From IMG/VR virus record IMGVR_UViG_2617270943_000003, positions 1 to 53,880 of that record: 53,880 bases of DNA, one strand, 5' to 3'. This stretch comes from a virus (Duplodnaviria > Heunggongvirae > Uroviricota > Caudoviricetes). Positions 5,172 to 51,510 of this stretch are shown piece after piece. The notes below the pieces were generated by a model, which was given only the letters and a program-made list of their open reading frames with translations, did not search any database and was not told the DNA's origin. The number at the start of each line of letters is the position of its first letter. Position 1 is the first letter of the stretch. Made by a program: the position numbers and the translations under genes.

Positions 5172-6290
5172 TTACAAAATGGAATATTCAGGGTAATAAA
5201 CAAAGCGCCCGATCTCCCCGTGATCAGGACTGTAAATTATTACCGCCGCCAGCCGCCGCGACCGCCAGCCGCCATTCGTTGAATAAGCGTCTTTGCCAGC
5301 TAACGTGCCGTGGTACTCAACAACGCCCAACGATGATTCAATCAGCCGTTGGTGATGCCAGTGTCCACAATGAGCGTAAACAGACGACGACTTGCCGAAA
5401 TCCTCCCGCCAGTCAGAAACGCAGGCAGAAAGTAAATTTTCTGGCTTTTTGATAGTGTGCCCGTGGTGGTAAGCAAGAAATGTTTTGCCGTACTGTGTGT
5501 GATGGACGATAGCAGGTGACACATCAACCGTCACACGCGGTTCATCTTCGTAAAAAGCCGCCAGCGCAGCACGTAGCCAGATCATACCTGATTGGTCGTG
5601 ATTACCGGATAATACTTGGATCTCGACATCCTTATGATTTAGTAACATCTTCCCGACCGCACGCCGGACCGACCGGATCGCCACGTAAACAAGTTTTGCG
5701 TAGCGTGAATCACAATCCAAAACGTGATTACTTGATGGCGTCACTGGTAACAGTCCGTCAGTGTGGAGCACATCCCCTCCTAACAGCAAAACAGCTTTTT
5801 CAGACATCGGTGCAGCGCCTACCGCGTAGTCGAAGAAGTCATTTAGCACGCGTTCAGCGATCCCGGTGTCGTAGCTCTCACCGCATTCAGCTTTATGAGC
5901 AAGCGCCCCGATATGCAGATCGAATACCGGATAAAGGGCCAGGCTTTTTTGAAAATCAATTTCCGGCACTGGCACGGCCTCCGCGCGGGGTATTTCTTCC
6001 GTGAAGGCGTCACAAGCAGATTGCATTAGCATTTCCATTTCATCGCGGTCACGGGCTGTTTTAATCCAGCGCATAATCACATTGCCATCCTTATCGACGA
6101 GCAATGACTCAGCATTGACGCCAAAACCCGGTGCGCGGCGCGTGGATATTAAACCGCGTTTCGCCAACCGTGCGCCCAGGCGTTCGACGTTGCGTTTTGC
6201 CATGCCATATTTTTCTGCGATCTGTTTATACGTCAGACCGTTATTATGTTCAGCGATTAACTGTTCATCGCTGATCTTTCTTTGTGACAT
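5172..6290 (-). CDS. HTH domain fused to calcineurin-like metallophosphoesterase
   Basis: N-terminal HTH (LTYKQIAEKYGMAKRNVERLGARLAKRGLI) and metallophosphatase motifs in canonical order: DLH, GGDVLHTD, GNHD, HHGH, GHWHH. Confidence 0.7.
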   Translation of the reverse strand: MSQRKISDEQLIAEHNNGLTYKQIAEKYGMAKRNVERLGARLAKRGLISTRRAPGFGVNAESLLVDKDGNVIMRWIKTARDRDEMEMLMQSACDAFTEEIPRAEAVPVPEIDFQKSLALYPVFDLHIGALAHKAECGESYDTGIAERVLNDFFDYAVGAAPMSEKAVLLLGGDVLHTDGLLPVTPSSNHVLDCDSRYAKLVYVAIRSVRRAVGKMLLNHKDVEIQVLSGNHDQSGMIWLRAALAAFYEDEPRVTVDVSPAIVHHTQYGKTFLAYHHGHTIKKPENLLSACVSDWREDFGKSSSVYAHCGHWHHQRLIESSLGVVEYHGTLAGKDAYSTNGGWRSRRLAAVIIYSPDHGEIGRFVYYPEYSIL

Positions 6291-7997: not shown

Positions 7998-8303
7998 CTT
8001 GTTTTTCTCCTATGGTTAGAGTGAACGCGCGGGCGGGCATCCCATTAGCATTAGATAGCAGTGACTGACCGCTGAACAGATCCCGCCGTTGCGTGATATT
8101 TGTTTTTCGCTTCGCAGCGACACCGGGTTTTTAAAGAGCTTAAGGTATGTGCCTTTTTGTGCCTTCCGTTATCTTTTTCCTTGCGTCTTTGCAAGTATGG
8201 CCTTACCTTGTCTGCAAGTTTACAAAATGGAATTTTAAGATCAAGGCTTAAAATACACGTTTTGTGACTTGCATCAAACTTTTTGAGGTTATAGGGTAGC
8301 GAC

Positions 8304-11482: not shown

Positions 11483-11598
11483 GCATGGTAAAAATTGCGG
11501 CATTAGCCGCCGCCTTCGTTATTGTGGTGATTTATATCACAGCTTCTTTTTATGTCGCCGTTTTTATTGCTGAATTAATTGTTGCATTGTTGGGGTGA
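11479..11598 (+). CDS. Small hydrophobic membrane peptide (39 aa)
   Basis: MSMVKIAALAAAFVIVVIYITASFYVAVFIAELIVALLG; ATGA stop/start overlap with the upstream gene. Confidence 0.3.
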   Translation: MSMVKIAALAAAFVIVVIYITASFYVAVFIAELIVALLG

Positions 11599-37113: not shown

Positions 37114-37791
37114 ATGATTCATGTTCGAACAGGACAATTTGCGGCGATGGTAGACGGCAGGCGGTACGTGTTTAATCCCTGCTTCGCTGCAATGGCTAAG
37201 ATCGGCAGTGACAGCGAACTGGTCGAATACTTCGCAACCATCCACGGTGGCAAATATCCATCACGATTGCCAGCAGATCCAGACCTTCGCAATCGCATTC
37301 TGGCGCGGTGTTATGGTGAGATAGTGCAAACGTCAATGCATATTCTGAAATGTTGCTCAGACGACGAAATAGGCCCGTTATTGGGTGAATGTAGGTTTAC
37401 TCCTTCCGGCAAATTGCGACTAAAACCCGGACTGATGCCGACCAGTGACGTTATCACGCTGGCGCAACATTGCATGTATCACGGTTTAATCGGTGACGGG
37501 CCAGAAGAAGACGCCGAAGAGATCCGGGAAGGGGAATATAAGCCGACTTTTAACGTGCTGGAATTCGTTTATTCTGCCGTAGCTCACCTGGGGTTATCAG
37601 AATCAGAAGCATGGAATATGACAATGACCGGATATAGGGCAGCCGTACGCGCTAAAACGCCGCCAGACGAAAGAAACGAAAGAAGCAAGCCAAACGTTCA
37701 CATAAATAAACGTGCTTATGACGAGCAAATGGAGGCCGCTAAAAGGGTGTTAGAAATGATGAAAAATCGTGAGCAAGAAAAAGCCCGGTAG
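37114..37791 (+). CDS. Putative tail assembly chaperone
   Basis: Location between tail tube and tape measure genes; ATG at 37114 with AGGGTGA upstream. Confidence 0.45.
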   Translation: MIHVRTGQFAAMVDGRRYVFNPCFAAMAKIGSDSELVEYFATIHGGKYPSRLPADPDLRNRILARCYGEIVQTSMHILKCCSDDEIGPLLGECRFTPSGKLRLKPGLMPTSDVITLAQHCMYHGLIGDGPEEDAEEIREGEYKPTFNVLEFVYSAVAHLGLSESEAWNMTMTGYRAAVRAKTPPDERNERSKPNVHINKRAYDEQMEAAKRVLEMMKNREQEKAR

Positions 37792-37816
37792 ATCCGGGCG
37801 TTTTTGTTAAGTTCGC

Positions 37817-38137
37817 TTATGCTATTTTTTCGTAAAGCACATTCATCTGTGTGCGAATTACTGTTAATATATTGATTGCTGCGTTCTTATTAATGCGTTT
37901 ATTCGCTACTATTTTTGTTTTCCCATCAATAACAACCAGATCTGCGTGCAATACATGGTTGAAGTTGACAATGTAATAATACTGTTTATCGCCAACATGT
38001 TGAACATATGCACCATTTAGATTTCCTTTATACCCACAATCACGCTCTGCGACACCGAAGTCAAATTCGCGGTTCATCTTGCGATTATATGCTACTTGTT
38101 TATGTTCCCATTTTCTCATCCATTCATCGCGTTTCAT
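37817..38137 (-). CDS. Hypothetical protein (accessory cassette A, gene 2)
   Basis: 106 aa opposite-strand ORF inserted between tail chaperone and tape measure genes. Confidence 0.5.
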   Translation of the reverse strand: MKRDEWMRKWEHKQVAYNRKMNREFDFGVAERDCGYKGNLNGAYVQHVGDKQYYYIVNFNHVLHADLVVIDGKTKIVANKRINKNAAINILTVIRTQMNVLYEKIA

Positions 38138-38146
38138 GTTTCACCC

Positions 38147-38806
38147 TTAATTCCAGTTGCAAGCGTTTTTTACTTTGTCGATGTGGTTATAAAGACCATC
38201 AATGTTAAACACTGCTTTCTCAATGTCGCCAGCTTCCGGCACTACTTCAATGATAAATTGTTTTTCGTTAACCAGATTTTTAATCATTGGGATGGCTTTT
38301 TTGTCGTTCCATAATCCAAGAGCTTTATAGTTAGTTGACCGCCCCCATTCAGTGGCTACAGCTTTGTGATCGCCGATCCGGTAGTTAATATAAGTAGCGT
38401 CCCCGGCGTCAGTTACACGGTGTGACCATGCTACGAACATTTTTGTTTTATTACCCTGGCAAGCAATTGTTAATACCGGTTTATTCTTATCCTGTGCCTT
38501 CAGTGCCGGGAAGGCATCAAGACTTCCGCTAAAATGATCTGCTTTCACAAAAAGGAACACGTTTTTTGTGTCCTGCATATCATCTTTTCTTTCGACCACA
38601 AGCCACTGTTTACCAGCTTTTTCTTTTGCTAACTGTGCCTCATATGCGGCTTGTTTTGCTTGTTGTTCCGCAAGCCATTTAGCATTTTTCTCAGCCAATG
38701 CTTGTTGTTCTTGAGTGGTCACTATAGGCGCTTTTTCATTATCCTCATTGCAACCAACCAGACCCAATACCGCCGCAATCATTGCCACTTTTGCTAACTG
38801 TTTCAT
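38147..38806 (-). CDS. Lipoprotein (accessory cassette A, gene 1)
   Basis: Signal peptide with lipobox MIAAVLGLVGC, then an Ala/Gln/Lys-rich helical linker and a C-terminal domain. Confidence 0.6.
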   Translation of the reverse strand: MKQLAKVAMIAAVLGLVGCNEDNEKAPIVTTQEQQALAEKNAKWLAEQQAKQAAYEAQLAKEKAGKQWLVVERKDDMQDTKNVFLFVKADHFSGSLDAFPALKAQDKNKPVLTIACQGNKTKMFVAWSHRVTDAGDATYINYRIGDHKAVATEWGRSTNYKALGLWNDKKAIPMIKNLVNEKQFIIEVVPEAGDIEKAVFNIDGLYNHIDKVKNACNWN

Positions 38807-39066: not shown

Positions 39067-41409
39067 ATGGCTACCAGTGTAGGTACAATTTATTACGAAG
39101 TTGACGCGAAAACTGGTCAACTTCTCGTTGCGCAGCGCCAGGCCGACCAGGCTTTTGACCGTATAGAGCGCGGCGCAAAACAGGCTGACCGCCAGGTAAA
39201 CACCCTGAAAACATCCATCAAGGCGCTAACCAGGGTTATCCATCTGCTAATTGCTGCGGAGGCTGTGCGCCAATTCATGGATATGGCGGAGCAAGCAAAA
39301 ATGCTTCGCGTAAAAATCAAAATGCTGACAGGTGATGCGGAGTCTGCCGGACGGGTTTTCGACGGCCTGAAAGCAATATCAAAAGAAACAGGTCAGAGCA
39401 TGAAGGATACAGGTGATCTGTGGCAAGGCCTGGCTATCTCACTGAAGAACACGTCCGCCACTGAAGGGCAATTGCTTAATCTGGTAGGTACGATTCAGAA
39501 AATGGGGGCGTTGGGTGGCGCGTCAGCGGAACAGATGTCTAACTCCATGCGTCAATTCCGTCAATCCATAGACGGCGGCGTGCTGCGTGCTGAAGAATTC
39601 AACAGCCTGTTAGAGAACACCCCAACCATCGTGCAGACAATGGCCCGCCAGATGGGGTTATCAATGGGTCAATTCCGCGCAGAAATGCTGGATGGCAAGA
39701 TCACAGCTGAAAGGATGGTCAACGCAATCCAGGCGGCTACGCAGGAAACAAACGAGAAGTTTGCACAGTTGCCGCGCACATCCGGTATGGCCCTGAATGA
39801 GCTTAAAGTCGAGGTTATGGGACTTGTTGAGCAATTGGATGATCTTTTCGGTGTATCCGATACGGTTGTTGCTGGTATCGATCTTGTAACGAAAGGTGTT
39901 AAGGCTTTAGGTGAAGGCGCTGATTTCGCTAAAACCTGCTTTAACACCCTGAATACGGCTGGTGGCGAATTCATCGACATGTTTGAAGATGTCAGAATCA
40001 AGGCTGGCGAGGTAGCCGAGAAGATCATCGCAATGGTGACGCCAATCAAGGCACTAATGGACGCCTACAAATGGATGAAGGAGGTCGTAGGAGAGCAAAC
40101 CGACGAATATAACAGCAACTACGAGAAGAAATACGGTAAGACCGTTGGCAAGGTCATGCAATTACAGGATGATCTGACCGCAGCAATCCGGGCTACAGAG
40201 GAAGCAAGGAAAAATGAACAGAATGCCGCCAATGACGGAGTGATTACCGGATTCGACAAGCCAGTAGACAAACCGAAAAAACAGAAAAAAGAGAAGAAAT
40301 CTGAAGCTGATCGGCTTGGTGACAAAGGCATAAGCGTTTCTGACCAGTACAACAAAGACGCCGCCGCTATGCGCAAAGCATTAGAGAACGGCAAGGCCAT
40401 TGATGCTGCATTCGCCCAGGGTAAAATCACCCTCCTTGAGTACCGCGCCGCGCAAAAAGGGATAGGTAAGGAACTGAAGGAAGAATTAGCACAAATTCCG
40501 GTAGAGGAATTGCGCGACAAATGGGAGCAAATAGTAAGCCCGATGGATCAGCTAAAGGGCGAAGTAGACCCTATTCAGCAGGTTCAAAATGAATGGGCCG
40601 TCCGTAAGCAAATGCTTATCGACCTGGGCGTGACGGAAGCGCAACAGAAACAGGAACTGTTAGCCTATGAGCAACAGATCCGCGATCTGAAGTGGGAACA
40701 ATGGCAGGCGCAAAGCGACACAAACGGCCTTATCGGTGATTGCGTTAATGGCCTTAAAGGCGGCATGAGTAATGCGCTTGTTGGCCTGCTTAACGGTACT
40801 CAATCGTTGAGCGATGTTTTTGCTAACTTAGGGAGCAATATACTAGGGAATATCGGCAACAGACTTTCTGATATAGCTGCCAACTGGATAGCAGATCAGA
40901 TAATGATGGAAACGCAAAGCAAAGCGACTCAGGCAAGTACCACGGCGGGCGCGGTAGCGGCGCAAGGCCAGATTGCTGCGGCGGCGGCCCCGGCGGCGGC
41001 GGCAACAGCGGCATCAACTGGCGGCGCATGGGCTGCGGCTGGTTCGGCGGCACTTACTGCGATCATGTCGCTGGCTACGTCAATTTTTGGAGGCGGTCGC
41101 TTTAATGGTGGTAGCGTTATTGGTGGCAATATGTACCGTGTCGGGGAACATAACAGGACGGAGCTATTCCAGACATCTAACGGAAATCAATACATGATCC
41201 CCGGCGAGAATGGCAGGGTTATTCCTGGGCGTGATATTGGCGGTGGCGGCGGCATTAGTATGCCTGTCAATATCAACATTCAGACCACAAACGGATTTAG
41301 CGACGAAGACAGTCGCAGACTTGAGCAAACAATGGAACGTGTAGCAATGAAGATGATAACAAGGGAATCACAAAGACCTGGCGGAATATTGCAACCGCGC
41401 CGCAAATAA
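39067..41409 (+). CDS. Tail tape measure protein
   Basis: 780 aa, largely alpha-helical, with Gly/Ala-rich C-terminal segment; canonical position. Confidence 0.85.
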   Translation: MATSVGTIYYEVDAKTGQLLVAQRQADQAFDRIERGAKQADRQVNTLKTSIKALTRVIHLLIAAEAVRQFMDMAEQAKMLRVKIKMLTGDAESAGRVFDGLKAISKETGQSMKDTGDLWQGLAISLKNTSATEGQLLNLVGTIQKMGALGGASAEQMSNSMRQFRQSIDGGVLRAEEFNSLLENTPTIVQTMARQMGLSMGQFRAEMLDGKITAERMVNAIQAATQETNEKFAQLPRTSGMALNELKVEVMGLVEQLDDLFGVSDTVVAGIDLVTKGVKALGEGADFAKTCFNTLNTAGGEFIDMFEDVRIKAGEVAEKIIAMVTPIKALMDAYKWMKEVVGEQTDEYNSNYEKKYGKTVGKVMQLQDDLTAAIRATEEARKNEQNAANDGVITGFDKPVDKPKKQKKEKKSEADRLGDKGISVSDQYNKDAAAMRKALENGKAIDAAFAQGKITLLEYRAAQKGIGKELKEELAQIPVEELRDKWEQIVSPMDQLKGEVDPIQQVQNEWAVRKQMLIDLGVTEAQQKQELLAYEQQIRDLKWEQWQAQSDTNGLIGDCVNGLKGGMSNALVGLLNGTQSLSDVFANLGSNILGNIGNRLSDIAANWIADQIMMETQSKATQASTTAGAVAAQGQIAAAAAPAAAATAASTGGAWAAAGSAALTAIMSLATSIFGGGRFNGGSVIGGNMYRVGEHNRTELFQTSNGNQYMIPGENGRVIPGRDIGGGGGISMPVNINIQTTNGFSDEDSRRLEQTMERVAMKMITRESQRPGGILQPRRK

Positions 41410-41415
41410 ACAAAA

Positions 41416-41442
41416 CCCCGGCACAATGCCGGGGCTATTTTT
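41416..41442. terminator. Bidirectional rho-independent terminator after tape measure gene
   Basis: CCCCGGC-ACAAT-GCCGGGG hairpin flanked by A-run upstream and T-run downstream. Confidence 0.65.
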
Positions 41443-41626
41443 ATTCAATTTCATCATTTTTAAATTCGCCGTTTACATAAAGCTGTAATGCTTTTATTAG
41501 TTCAGCGGCTTGCTTTTTGTCTATTACAATCATTTCGCAGTCGCTCACGATCCATAATCGCCCATCCTCTTCAATGCTAAGATTAATCCCTCTACATTCT
41601 TGCGTTTCATGAATAATCATTATCAA
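41441..41626 (-). CDS. Hypothetical protein (accessory cassette B, gene 4)
   Basis: 61 aa opposite-strand ORF. Confidence 0.4.
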   Translation of the reverse strand: MIMIIHETQECRGINLSIEEDGRLWIVSDCEMIVIDKKQAAELIKALQLYVNGEFKNDEIE

Positions 41627-41658
41627 CCTCCATTGTGTTATTAATTACATGAATAAAT

Positions 41659-41853
41659 TTACTCAAAACTTGTATATCCTCTCACAATTTTTCCGCCTCT
41701 TGCGCTTTTTGCAAATACAGCGTCAGTGTATCTGAAAAACGGTTCTGTGTATGTCTCACCTTTGCTATCCATCCATTTAACCACCCAGGCCATGCGTTTA
41801 ATGTTGCTTTTGCTTGCTGTAGTTTTCATTTTGTTTTCCTCCGCAACATTCAA
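41659..41853 (-). CDS. Hypothetical protein (accessory cassette B, gene 3)
   Basis: 64 aa opposite-strand ORF. Confidence 0.4.
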   Translation of the reverse strand: MNVAEENKMKTTASKSNIKRMAWVVKWMDSKGETYTEPFFRYTDAVFAKSARGGKIVRGYTSFE

Positions 41854-41860
41854 ATCCGAA

Positions 41861-42115
41861 TCACTTGTGAGCGCCTTTCACCCCACAGTGCCTGTTATAT
41901 TCCAGATGATCGATGATTAACCAGACTTTGAGATCTTCGCTAAACAGCCGCCAGTCAGGATTGATATCGAATTTAAAGCCATAACCATCGCGTAACTTTT
42001 TGGGGCGCGCCTCTTTCTTCAAAAATGCTTTAAGCAGTTCCTTACCTTTCTTGATAATCCGGTCCTGTGCGTTTTTCTGTACTTTCAGGTTTTTGTCAAT
42101 CGCTACCAGTTTCAT
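41861..42115 (-). CDS. Hypothetical basic protein (accessory cassette B, gene 2)
   Basis: 84 aa Lys-rich ORF. Confidence 0.45.
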   Translation of the reverse strand: MKLVAIDKNLKVQKNAQDRIIKKGKELLKAFLKKEARPKKLRDGYGFKFDINPDWRLFSEDLKVWLIIDHLEYNRHCGVKGAHK

Positions 42116-42134
42116 AGCTCACCCCCGATTATCC

Positions 42135-42290
42135 TTAATTAAGAGCCTTCAGGAAGAAATCACGGTATTCATCTTCTTTTGCATTCATCATGAATTGACC
42201 GTATTTGAATGCGTCGTCGAAACCCTTAACGATTGCTATTTCCACTTGTTCGAATGCGTTGTTTAGCATTACCACTACATAGCGTTTCAT
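42135..42290 (-). CDS. Hypothetical protein (accessory cassette B, gene 1)
   Basis: Start placed at MKRYVVVML, preceded by GAAGGAGG; the track ORF extends upstream to 42365. Confidence 0.4.
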   Translation of the reverse strand: MKRYVVVMLNNAFEQVEIAIVKGFDDAFKYGQFMMNAKEDEYRDFFLKALN

Positions 42291-42458
42291 TTTGGGCCTC
42301 CTTCGTTGGTACTGCTTTTCTTCTTGCTTTCTATATACATCTTGTTGCGTACTATGTGAAGCCATTTTGTAAACTAGCTATAATCATTGTGATGAAGATC
42401 TCATTTTTCGCGTAGAAGCGCGTAAAGATATATACAAAATGTAACTTATGGGGGTTTT

Positions 42459-42812
42459 ATGCCGGAAGTGTTCAGATGGACGCCACAACGAAGCTACAGC
42501 GTGACCAGGGAGCCAGACGTGTCTGTTGTTAAGCTGGGTGATGGTTATGAGCAAAGGCAGGTGAAAGGTATCAATCCATTACTCGATAGCTACACCCTGG
42601 TATTTAAAGGCAGTAGCGCCGGATGCGGTGATGGTGAAAACGTAGCAATCCAGGCGGAAGCATTCTTGAGGGCGCGCGGCGCGGTAGAGGCTTTTTACTG
42701 GTCGCCGTCGATGGATAACGTGCAAAGGCTTTTTGTTTGCCGTCGATGGAGCATGACTAAAGACGGGTCTTTGTACACGCTAAACGCAACATTTGAGCAA
42801 GTCGTCAGATGA
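42459..42812 (+). CDS. M: Minor tail protein M
   Basis: FRWTPQRSYSVTREPDVSVVKLGDGYEQR...ATFEQVV is collinear with lambda gpM. Confidence 0.8.
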   Translation: MPEVFRWTPQRSYSVTREPDVSVVKLGDGYEQRQVKGINPLLDSYTLVFKGSSAGCGDGENVAIQAEAFLRARGAVEAFYWSPSMDNVQRLFVCRRWSMTKDGSLYTLNATFEQVVR

Positions 42813-43009
42813 TGGAGGTTAATATGTATGGTATTTGTGTAGTGGACCGCACTGGCGCTTTTACATTCTTTGACGACTATGAAATTAAAGATCTTACTGT
42901 AAAGGCTGACAATGGCGAGATCTGGTATCTTCATGATGTTGGTGACGGGTATGTCGGATGCAGATCGAGAGAGGGTAGGGAAGTTTTATTCTTGCTTGAT
43001 GGCGTATAA
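42809..43009 (+). CDS. Hypothetical protein
   Basis: 66 aa ORF inserted between M and L homologs. Confidence 0.4.
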   Translation: MMEVNMYGICVVDRTGAFTFFDDYEIKDLTVKADNGEIWYLHDVGDGYVGCRSREGREVLFLLDGV

Positions 43010-43015
43010 ACACGA

Positions 43016-43043
43016 CCCCGCGCGAAGCGGGGTTATTATTATT
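43016..43043 (+). terminator. Rho-independent terminator
   Basis: CCCCGC-GCGAA-GCGGGG hairpin followed by TTATTATTATT. Confidence 0.6.
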
Positions 43044-51230: not shown

Positions 51231-51237
51231 AAAATAA

Positions 51238-51262
51238 CCCCGCTTCGCGCGGGGTTTTCTTT
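51238..51262. terminator. Bidirectional rho-independent terminator between J and the convergent lipoprotein gene
   Basis: CCCCGC-TTCGC-GCGGGG hairpin with A-run upstream and T-run downstream. Confidence 0.65.
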
Positions 51263-51510
51263 TAGTAGTTAGCTACACAATTCGACGGGCTACCTATGCG
51301 GCGCATGTTGTGATCGAGTTCATGACACCATTGACCAGTATACGGAAGTTTTTCAGTGTCATAGACGAGATGACCGTCAGCATCATAGACAATTTCTTGT
51401 GGGATTACTCCGCTATTTGGCAGGTTATGCAATGCAGCTTCTTTATCAACAGCGCAACCAGTAAGAGCAACAGCCGCAGCGAATAAGACCACTTTGAACA
51501 TGTTTTTCAT
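51262..51510 (-). CDS. Small lipoprotein, Cor-like candidate
   Basis: Signal peptide with lipobox AVALTGC; 82 aa; opposite-strand gene between J and the tail fibre gene, the usual place for cor. Confidence 0.4.
   Translation of the reverse strand: MKNMFKVVLFAAAVALTGCAVDKEAALHNLPNSGVIPQEIVYDADGHLVYDTEKLPYTGQWCHELDHNMRRIGSPSNCVANY

Follow-up and report, generated by a model that had tools for sequence, protein, structure and literature searches.

A moron-type operon with a predicted RelE/ParE-fold protein in the tail-gene module of an mEp021-group phage

Four small genes on the minus strand, here named g1, g2, g3 and g4, lie at positions 41441-42290 of IMG/VR virus record IMGVR_UViG_2617270943_000003, between the tape measure gene and the gene for the minor tail protein M (gene M). 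The whole 53,880-nt stretch, referred to below as the window (~54 kb), is the genome of a temperate siphophage of the mEp021 (mEpimmI) group. The protein encoded by g2 is, according to its structural model, a RelE/ParE toxin-fold protein, and the single most likely explanation of g1-g2, put forward tentatively, is a type II toxin-antitoxin-like pair. The cassette is an ordinary, uncharacterised accessory operon of familiar kinds, namely a prophage moron that carries a member of the RelE/ParE-fold toxin family.

The four genes and their coding status

The initial annotation of the window described four consecutive minus-strand open reading frames (ORFs) between the tape measure gene and gene M, and all four are present:

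42135-42290, minus strand: g1, 51 amino acids, mildly acidic (isoelectric point, pI, 5.1); first gene of the cassette, conserved; candidate neutraliser of g2
41861-42115, minus strand: g2, 84 amino acids, basic (pI 9.9); predicted RelE/ParE-superfamily toxin-fold protein, Pfam PF24732 ParE_like
41659-41829, minus strand: g3, 56 amino acids, basic (pI 10.0); optional cargo
41441-41620, minus strand: g4, 59 amino acids, acidic (pI 4.5); optional cargo

A strong ribosome-binding site stands before each ORF. For g1 it is the site originally claimed, GAAGGAGG at 42297-42304, with the ATG six bases on. The ORFs of g3 and g4 are likewise real genes, with different starts: in place of the TTG codons first chosen (41853 and 41626), the ATGs at 41829 and 41620 are most likely used, because a GGAGG-type site (GGAGGAAAAC) precedes that of g3 and a GGAGG site that of g4, and because the resulting lengths agree with mEp515 and with the RefSeq annotation. 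An extended g1 of 76 amino acids starting from 42365 is rejected, the upstream frame not being conserved and differing between relatives by insertions and deletions.

Conservation was followed in a comparative set of 47 viral contigs, obtained by related-locus retrieval, and three GenBank phages, with 48 loci of the mEp021 type. The ratio of non-synonymous to synonymous substitution rates (dN/dS; 14-48 related loci) is 0.069 for g1, 0.082 for g2, 0.13 for g3 and 0.17 for g4, compared with 0.078 for the structural gene M, and the variable sites of g1-g4 are mostly third codon positions. With dN/dS at 0.07-0.17 and variation of this kind, all four ORFs are real genes under purifying selection; they are conserved as coding sequences in related phages, a point on which the initial annotation had let its proposal stand or fall. 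The products are very small, three of the four belong to no family of known function, and truncated g2 fragments of 46-61 amino acids occur in some E. coli genomes, all of which could fit chance frames or decaying remnants without function. Such an origin has next to no likelihood: the ratios are on a par with that of gene M, the variation is mostly in third positions, every ORF has its strong ribosome-binding site, and the genes are kept in dozens of independent phage genomes. The substitution pattern already refutes it.

Family and predicted fold of g2

The statement of the initial annotation that no motif is recognised is wrong for g2. Its product matches the Pfam ParE-like toxin domain PF24732 (E 7.9e-11; 42.2 bits, cut-off 24.4), as do all 14 diverse members of the g2 family, and UniRef and RefSeq PGAP name its homologues "ParE family toxin-like protein". 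The canonical ParE_toxin and RelE models of Pfam do not match the g2 family at E values up to 10, and sequence searches of the PDB with g2, both as a single sequence and as a profile, return nothing. An exhaustive phmmer search of 1.84 billion representatives yields six hits, to which a profile word-search adds little; the sequence family is therefore narrow. Alignment of the g2 profile by hhalign with single RelE, ParE, HigB and YafQ sequences gives short, non-significant local matches only.

Structure prediction with a fold search, proposed in the initial annotation for each protein, was run for g2. The first AlphaFold model is poor (predicted local distance difference test, pLDDT, 64), and fold searches with it are uninformative. 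After the addition of five divergent homologues the model reaches a pLDDT of 86.6 and a predicted template modelling score (pTM) of 0.76. It shows the order strand-strand-helix-strand-strand-strand-helix, and its best structural neighbours are the RelE, HigB, YafQ, YoeB and ParE toxins. The compact alpha/beta fold of the RelE/ParE superfamily is thus predicted for g2. Among the neighbours, the mRNA-interferase type ranks slightly above ParE proper, by a margin too small to decide the target.

Residues R56, W65 and N74 of g2 are invariant and H70 is nearly so; they fall in the final strands and the helix at the C-terminus. RelE-type enzymes have their catalytic residues in this same part of the fold, and R56, H70, Y/F73 and N74 would suit a RelE-type active site.

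g1 and g2 as a putative toxin-antitoxin pair

The start of g2 follows the stop of g1 after 19 nt; the two genes are co-directional and each has a ribosome-binding site. Adjacent small co-directional genes, a short gap and the presumptive antitoxin in first place are the layout of type II systems, and g1-g2 displays it. The order is stable, with g1 directly upstream of g2 in 46 of the 48 mEp021-type loci, and in 13 loci the two genes are the whole cassette. Together with the ParE_like match and the RelE/ParE fold of a protein encoded 19 nt behind a small acidic one, this gives substance to the toxin-antitoxin function suggested in the initial annotation.

The operon would be transcribed leftwards from the 168-bp spacer that it shares with gene M, and transcription would stop at a bidirectional terminator shared with the tape measure gene. 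The g2 protein would most likely be a toxin that arrests growth, either by ribosome-dependent cleavage of mRNA or by poisoning gyrase, with the structural neighbours slightly favouring the RelE type. The g1 protein, made just before g2 from the same mRNA, would most likely bind and neutralise it. Such a pair would benefit the prophage through stabilisation, abortive infection or exclusion. The toxicity of g2, its neutralisation by g1, its biochemical target and the timing of expression are the parts of this model that we infer.

Several observations weigh against a toxin-antitoxin pair. Searches of Pfam, NCBIfam, PADLOC and the PDB find no antitoxin or DNA-binding domain in g1 (ribbon-helix-helix, helix-turn-helix, AbrB or Phd/YefM). 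One lineage, made up of contigs L007 and L009 (L009 being identical to the UMNK88 prophage of E. coli), has lost g1 precisely: the g1 leader and ribosome-binding site are fused to the ATG of an intact g2. The g2 copies of L007 and L009 differ by seven synonymous and two non-synonymous codons, so g2 is still constrained there. A toxin that is never kept without its antitoxin is therefore not what is found in L007 and L009/UMNK88, which represent one deletion event. Nor do the distances of the two genes correlate. The Spearman correlation between g1 and g2 distances is 0.12, the g1 distances instead tracking the phage backbone (0.58 with gene M, 0.76 with the C-terminus of the tape measure protein), and a single g1 allele is paired with nine g2 alleles that diverge by up to 40%. 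On these comparisons, strict toxin-antitoxin behaviour of g1-g2 is doubtful.

The same observations bear on a second explanation, in which g2 is a stand-alone RelE/ParE-fold effector free of control by g1, their adjacency reflects operon order only, and g1 has a separate conserved function of its own. The effector would be tolerated at its native expression and act conditionally, for example on superinfecting phages or on host translation or mRNA. This explanation ranks next after the toxin-antitoxin pair, as a possible and on balance unlikely one. It accommodates the g1-less lineage with its intact, constrained g2, and also the swapping of g2 alleles independently of g1 and of the phage backbone, which is typical of specificity or defence modules. 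Relatives of g2 without g1 occur in phage contigs of ~140 kb and in a contig with ParA/ParB genes, and contig L027 has g1 together with a g2 match that begins at residue 8 and lacks a full-length ATG-initiated ORF. Against it, every g2 relative examined outside the g1-less lineage has a small ORF immediately upstream, as fits toxin-antitoxin systems that swap partners: the distant relatives stand behind unrelated ORFs, a 38-amino-acid acidic Cys4 protein located 20 nt upstream in one case and a 69-amino-acid protein in the ~140 kb contigs. The g1-less lineage, moreover, is a single deletion event and has the only A-to-T change in the conserved box of the control region (TTTTCAAAATGG), which may, speculatively, lower expression. 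Among type II systems, active RelE/ParE toxins that stand alone are unusual.

The most distant g2 relative, P0102 (37-39% identity), is encoded at 3864-4255 of contig L051, where it adjoins P1-type ParA/ParB partition genes. The 38-amino-acid ORF 20 nt upstream of it is zinc-ribbon-like and is a possible alternative partner. A viral scan for P0102 finds no relative.

Regarding g1 itself, the protein matches phrog_29810 (g4 matches phrog_13627), and both of these PHROGs are of unknown function. It has no match in Pfam or NCBIfam and no meaningful one in PADLOC, and its profile searched against the PDB gives only one marginal hit, CagT (E about 0.04), which lacks a domain-level match and is not considered meaningful. 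The idea that g1 is of the ribbon-helix-helix type, considered on its sequence pattern only, is rejected; the N-terminal strand is uniformly hydrophobic and profiles give no support.

Distribution and architecture of the cassette

The 1.1 kb around the cassette matches only seven phage records at 82-92% identity (mEp021, mEp010, mEp013, mEp044, mEp515, mEp554 and MagusPhagus), and the locus is also found in E. coli prophages, in 35 of 5426 complete E. coli genomes. In all DNA matches the cassette has the tape measure gene on one side and the minor tail gene on the other. Searching the phage collection with g1-g4 by tblastn returns mEp021-group records and one Acinetobacter phage only. A scan of genome contigs finds no relative, and neither does a search of plasmids. 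The published account of the mEp021 phage group does not discuss the g1-g4 genes.

Between gene M and the tape measure gene, the gap ranges from 685 to 1779 bp across related loci. It is filled by a modular array of fixed order: g1, g2, then optionally an HNH endonuclease, ORFs of 49 and 30 amino acids, g3 and g4, with further optional membrane-like ORFs of 61 and 95 amino acids after g4. The cassette does not hold together as the single four-gene unit first described; g1-g2 is a near-universal head pair, and g3 and g4 are optional. g3 is present in 22 of the 48 related loci, and g4 is detected in about 19, some copies being only about 50% identical. g3 and g4 are interchangeable cargo genes. 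An obligate second pair g3-g4 is rejected, each gene being found without the other. Neither protein has a Pfam match or, in single-sequence and profile searches, a match in the PDB; PADLOC and NCBIfam give nothing meaningful for the cassette proteins.

The cargo position holds other genes in some relatives. A gene for a 168-amino-acid HNH endonuclease comes right after g2 and overlaps its end in L001 (2214-2720; mEp515) and L047, and mEp021 has a zinc-ribbon protein and a 157-amino-acid ORF instead. Outside the group, contigs L048 (480-707 and 3001-3267) and L049 (~140 kb) and the related 11-kb L052 contain a g2-like gene (45-50% identity) and a g3-like gene on the same strand, 2.3 kb apart; the g3 relative in these unrelated ~140 kb viral contigs is 51% identical over 41 amino acids. 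Many small genes surround them, and the contigs have no close relative in the GenBank phage collection. Their arrangement hints at a g2-g3 linkage beyond the mEp021 group.

The left end of the cassette is formed by a terminator:

41414-41436, both strands: bidirectional intrinsic terminator, a GC-rich hairpin with a T-run on each strand, common to the tape measure gene (plus strand) and the cassette (minus strand)

This hairpin scores on both strands, as the initial annotation had it, and Rfam searches of 41000-43000 give sub-threshold matches only, at the terminator. The GC content is 39% in the cassette and 51% in the flanking tail genes. The picture of an opposite-strand accessory cassette with its own terminator is accordingly borne out. 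Its own terminator, deviating GC content and presence or absence among relatives are features of a moron; g1-g2 itself, however, is near-universal.

Four low-GC operons of the moron type, all on the opposite strand, interrupt the module of tail genes, and the present region is one of them. These minus-strand cassettes lie at 37817-38806, 41441-42290, 43247 to about 44260, and 51262-51510, and each ends at a bidirectional hairpin terminator (37783-37799, 43014-43034 and 51236-51256 for the three sisters). The sister cassettes are low in GC and are bounded by the terminator on one side and, on the other, by a divergent spacer that contains a box. The cassette at 37817-38806 encodes a 219-amino-acid protein with a lipoprotein-like N-terminus.

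Control region and genome-wide motifs

The spacer between g1 and gene M contains the following elements:

42291-42458, both strands: divergent control region of g1 and gene M, 168 bp, conserved
42362-42371, minus (cassette) strand: TACAAAATGG box, an exact copy of a genome-wide motif
42433-42442, plus strand: TACAAAATGT box, facing gene M; inverted partner of 42362-42371, less conserved among relatives
42379-42384, plus strand: TATAAT hexamer, directed towards gene M; without variation in the aligned relatives, no acceptable -35 hexamer
42388-42403, no strand assigned: CRP-like palindrome TGTGATGAAGATCTCA, one mismatch from TGTGA-N6-TCACA

Within it, a block reading TCACAA..ATTATA.C.AGTTTACAAAATGGCTTCAC hardly varies among 43 distinct related sequences, unlike the flanking leader. 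The upstream repeat noted at the outset is present, CCATTTTGTA at 42362-42371 and TACAAAATGT at 42433-42442 forming a perfect inverted repeat of 9 nt. The TATAAT hexamer also exists, on the plus strand, where it faces gene M and not the cassette; because it has no acceptable -35 hexamer, no consensus promoter is called there. No sigma-70 consensus promoter with at least 9 of 12 matches is found in 41300-42600. A weak candidate promoter on the cassette strand, ATCACA-N18-CAAAAT, was read by eye on the alignment. Relatives conserve the TGTGA half of the CRP-like site and differ in its other half.

The CCATTTTGTA/TACAAAATG element and the CRP-like site, taken initially as features of this cassette, prove to be genome-wide motifs. 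With at most one mismatch, TACAAAATGG occurs in 23 copies against 5.5 expected. Outside coding sequence, the copies lie for the most part in regulatory regions between genes, several of them directed towards the neighbouring gene. The box may be a promoter element or a regulator site. Boxes are located at 5173, 8221, 9064, 9743, 16682/16756, 22571, 38990/39025, 42371/42433, 44258 and 51615/51639, and three of these (38990/39025, 42371/42433 and 51615/51639) are inverted pairs at the divergent junctions of tail-region cassettes. The positions are syntenic in mEp021, including the copy at 42362-42371. A 16-mer, TACAAAATGGCTTCAC, precedes both the g1-g4 cassette and the cassette at 38147-38806.

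The palindrome TGTGA-N6-TCACA, again with at most one mismatch, is found nine times against 1.74 expected, six of the nine lying within 100 bp of a TACAAAATGG box. CRP-like sites are at 8263, 16700, 22550, 42388, 44330 and 51627, and also at 11526, 13135 and 28099; several are conserved in mEp021. They may be sites for host CRP or for a phage regulator. The cassette thereby appears, from the arrangement of these motifs, to be wired into the phage's own (or a CRP-dependent) regulatory scheme.

A fixed composite of the TACAAAATGG box and the CRP-like palindrome is rejected, the spacing varying from overlap to about 80 bp. An identity of TACAAAATGG with the boxA of nut sites is rejected as well, clear boxA/boxB-like sites being present elsewhere, at 8140 (minus strand), 9358 (plus) and 16775 (plus). 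Such nut-like sites, for example TGCTCTTTAAAAATCCGGCAGCGCTGAAATGCG, stand where the literature puts nutL, nutR1 and nutR2 of mEp021. Next to the repressor gene, at about 8233-8253, a palindrome of 21 bp, TTTTAAGATCAAGGCTTAAAA, looks like an operator.

Late transcription and a possible role in exclusion

The position of the cassette against the direction of late transcription bears on a further explanation, under which the operon would serve anti-defence or superinfection exclusion, its RelE/ParE fold having been co-opted without toxin activity. It would be expressed in the prophage, as is the exclusion lipoprotein cassette of these phages, and silenced in the lytic cycle by antisense late transcription in the manner of a non-contiguous operon. 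This explanation is improbable, with evidence on both sides. In mEp021, the sister cassette after gene J, at the position of 51262-51510, encodes the lipoprotein Lpp021, for which phage exclusion is shown experimentally (PMC11893012), and the cargo of the present cassette is modular and variable. In phi80, taiEcA is an opposite-strand gene within a Q-dependent late operon, a non-contiguous operon; the lysogen expresses this gene, and overexpression of Q lowers its level (PMC11364771). As mEp021 has a gene for a Q-like late regulator, antiterminated transcription of the late region probably passes through all four cassettes in antisense, by analogy with phi80 taiEcA. On the other side, PADLOC models give no meaningful E value for any of the proteins, tblastn of g1-g4 against the phage collection yields no phi80 match, and the four sequences, read directly, contain no signal peptide or lipobox.

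A more elaborate reading, which is less to be expected still, joins several of these elements. In it, g2 is a self-sufficient RelE-fold effector whose alleles are swapped rapidly; the prophage would use it as a module for specificity or defence, and g1 or, alternatively, g3 would modulate it. A phage-wide code of TACAAAATGG boxes and CRP-like palindromes would regulate it jointly with the other three antisense cassettes, and Q-antiterminated antisense late transcription would silence it.

Significance

Temperate coliphages of the mEp021 (mEpimmI) type are reported to be common in the human gut, and their accessory genes have remained unstudied. If g1-g2 were an active toxin-antitoxin pair or a defence module, both the stability of the prophage and the resistance of its E. 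coli hosts to phages would be influenced by it. With a lineage that lacks g1, and with g2 alleles exchanged freely, the group provides a natural experiment: can a protein of the RelE/ParE fold persist when it has no antitoxin of its own? The finding is of incremental value, since its fold, family label and moron architecture are all familiar.

Comparison with known systems

Like the RelE/ParE superfamily, which comprises the mRNA interferases RelE, YafQ, YoeB and HigB and the ParE gyrase poisons, g2 is small and basic, with a helix packed on an antiparallel sheet in its model. It differs at the N-terminus, where a beta-hairpin and one long helix are predicted in place of the helical hairpin.

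Prophage-borne toxin-antitoxin systems of the same family are ParESO-CopASO of CP4So (PMC8706911) and PfiT/PfiA of Pf4 (PMC7264888). With these, and with PaaR2-PaaA2-ParE2 from an E. coli O157:H7 prophage (PDB 5czf), g2 shares its nature as a prophage accessory toxin, as predicted, the same fold and a small partner gene in first place. Sequence similarity to the three systems is absent. Their antitoxin is obligatory, whereas a g1-less lineage exists here and the g1 and g2 distances do not correlate, and none of them is embedded antisense in a tail operon as g1-g2 is. The antitoxin PaaA2 is, like g1, short and without a DNA-binding domain.

The tail region of lambdoid phages is also the site of the exclusion moron gp15 of HK97. 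In common with the lambdoid morons and the Lpp021 cassette of mEp021, the g1-g4 cassette consists of extra genes in the late region with their own terminator, lower GC content and variable presence, placed against late transcription. It departs from the lambdoid morons in two respects: g1-g2 is nearly universal in the phage group and not sporadic, and its promoter-region motifs are common to the phage's regulatory regions, with no obviously imported promoter. The taiEcA/atiEcA genes of phi80 likewise interrupt a late operon on the opposite strand. TaiEcA is a tail-assembly inhibitor of 26 kDa, and similarity of g1-g4 to TaiEcA or AtiEcA is seen neither with tblastn nor, to any meaningful extent, with PADLOC; the resemblance between the two loci is one of architecture.

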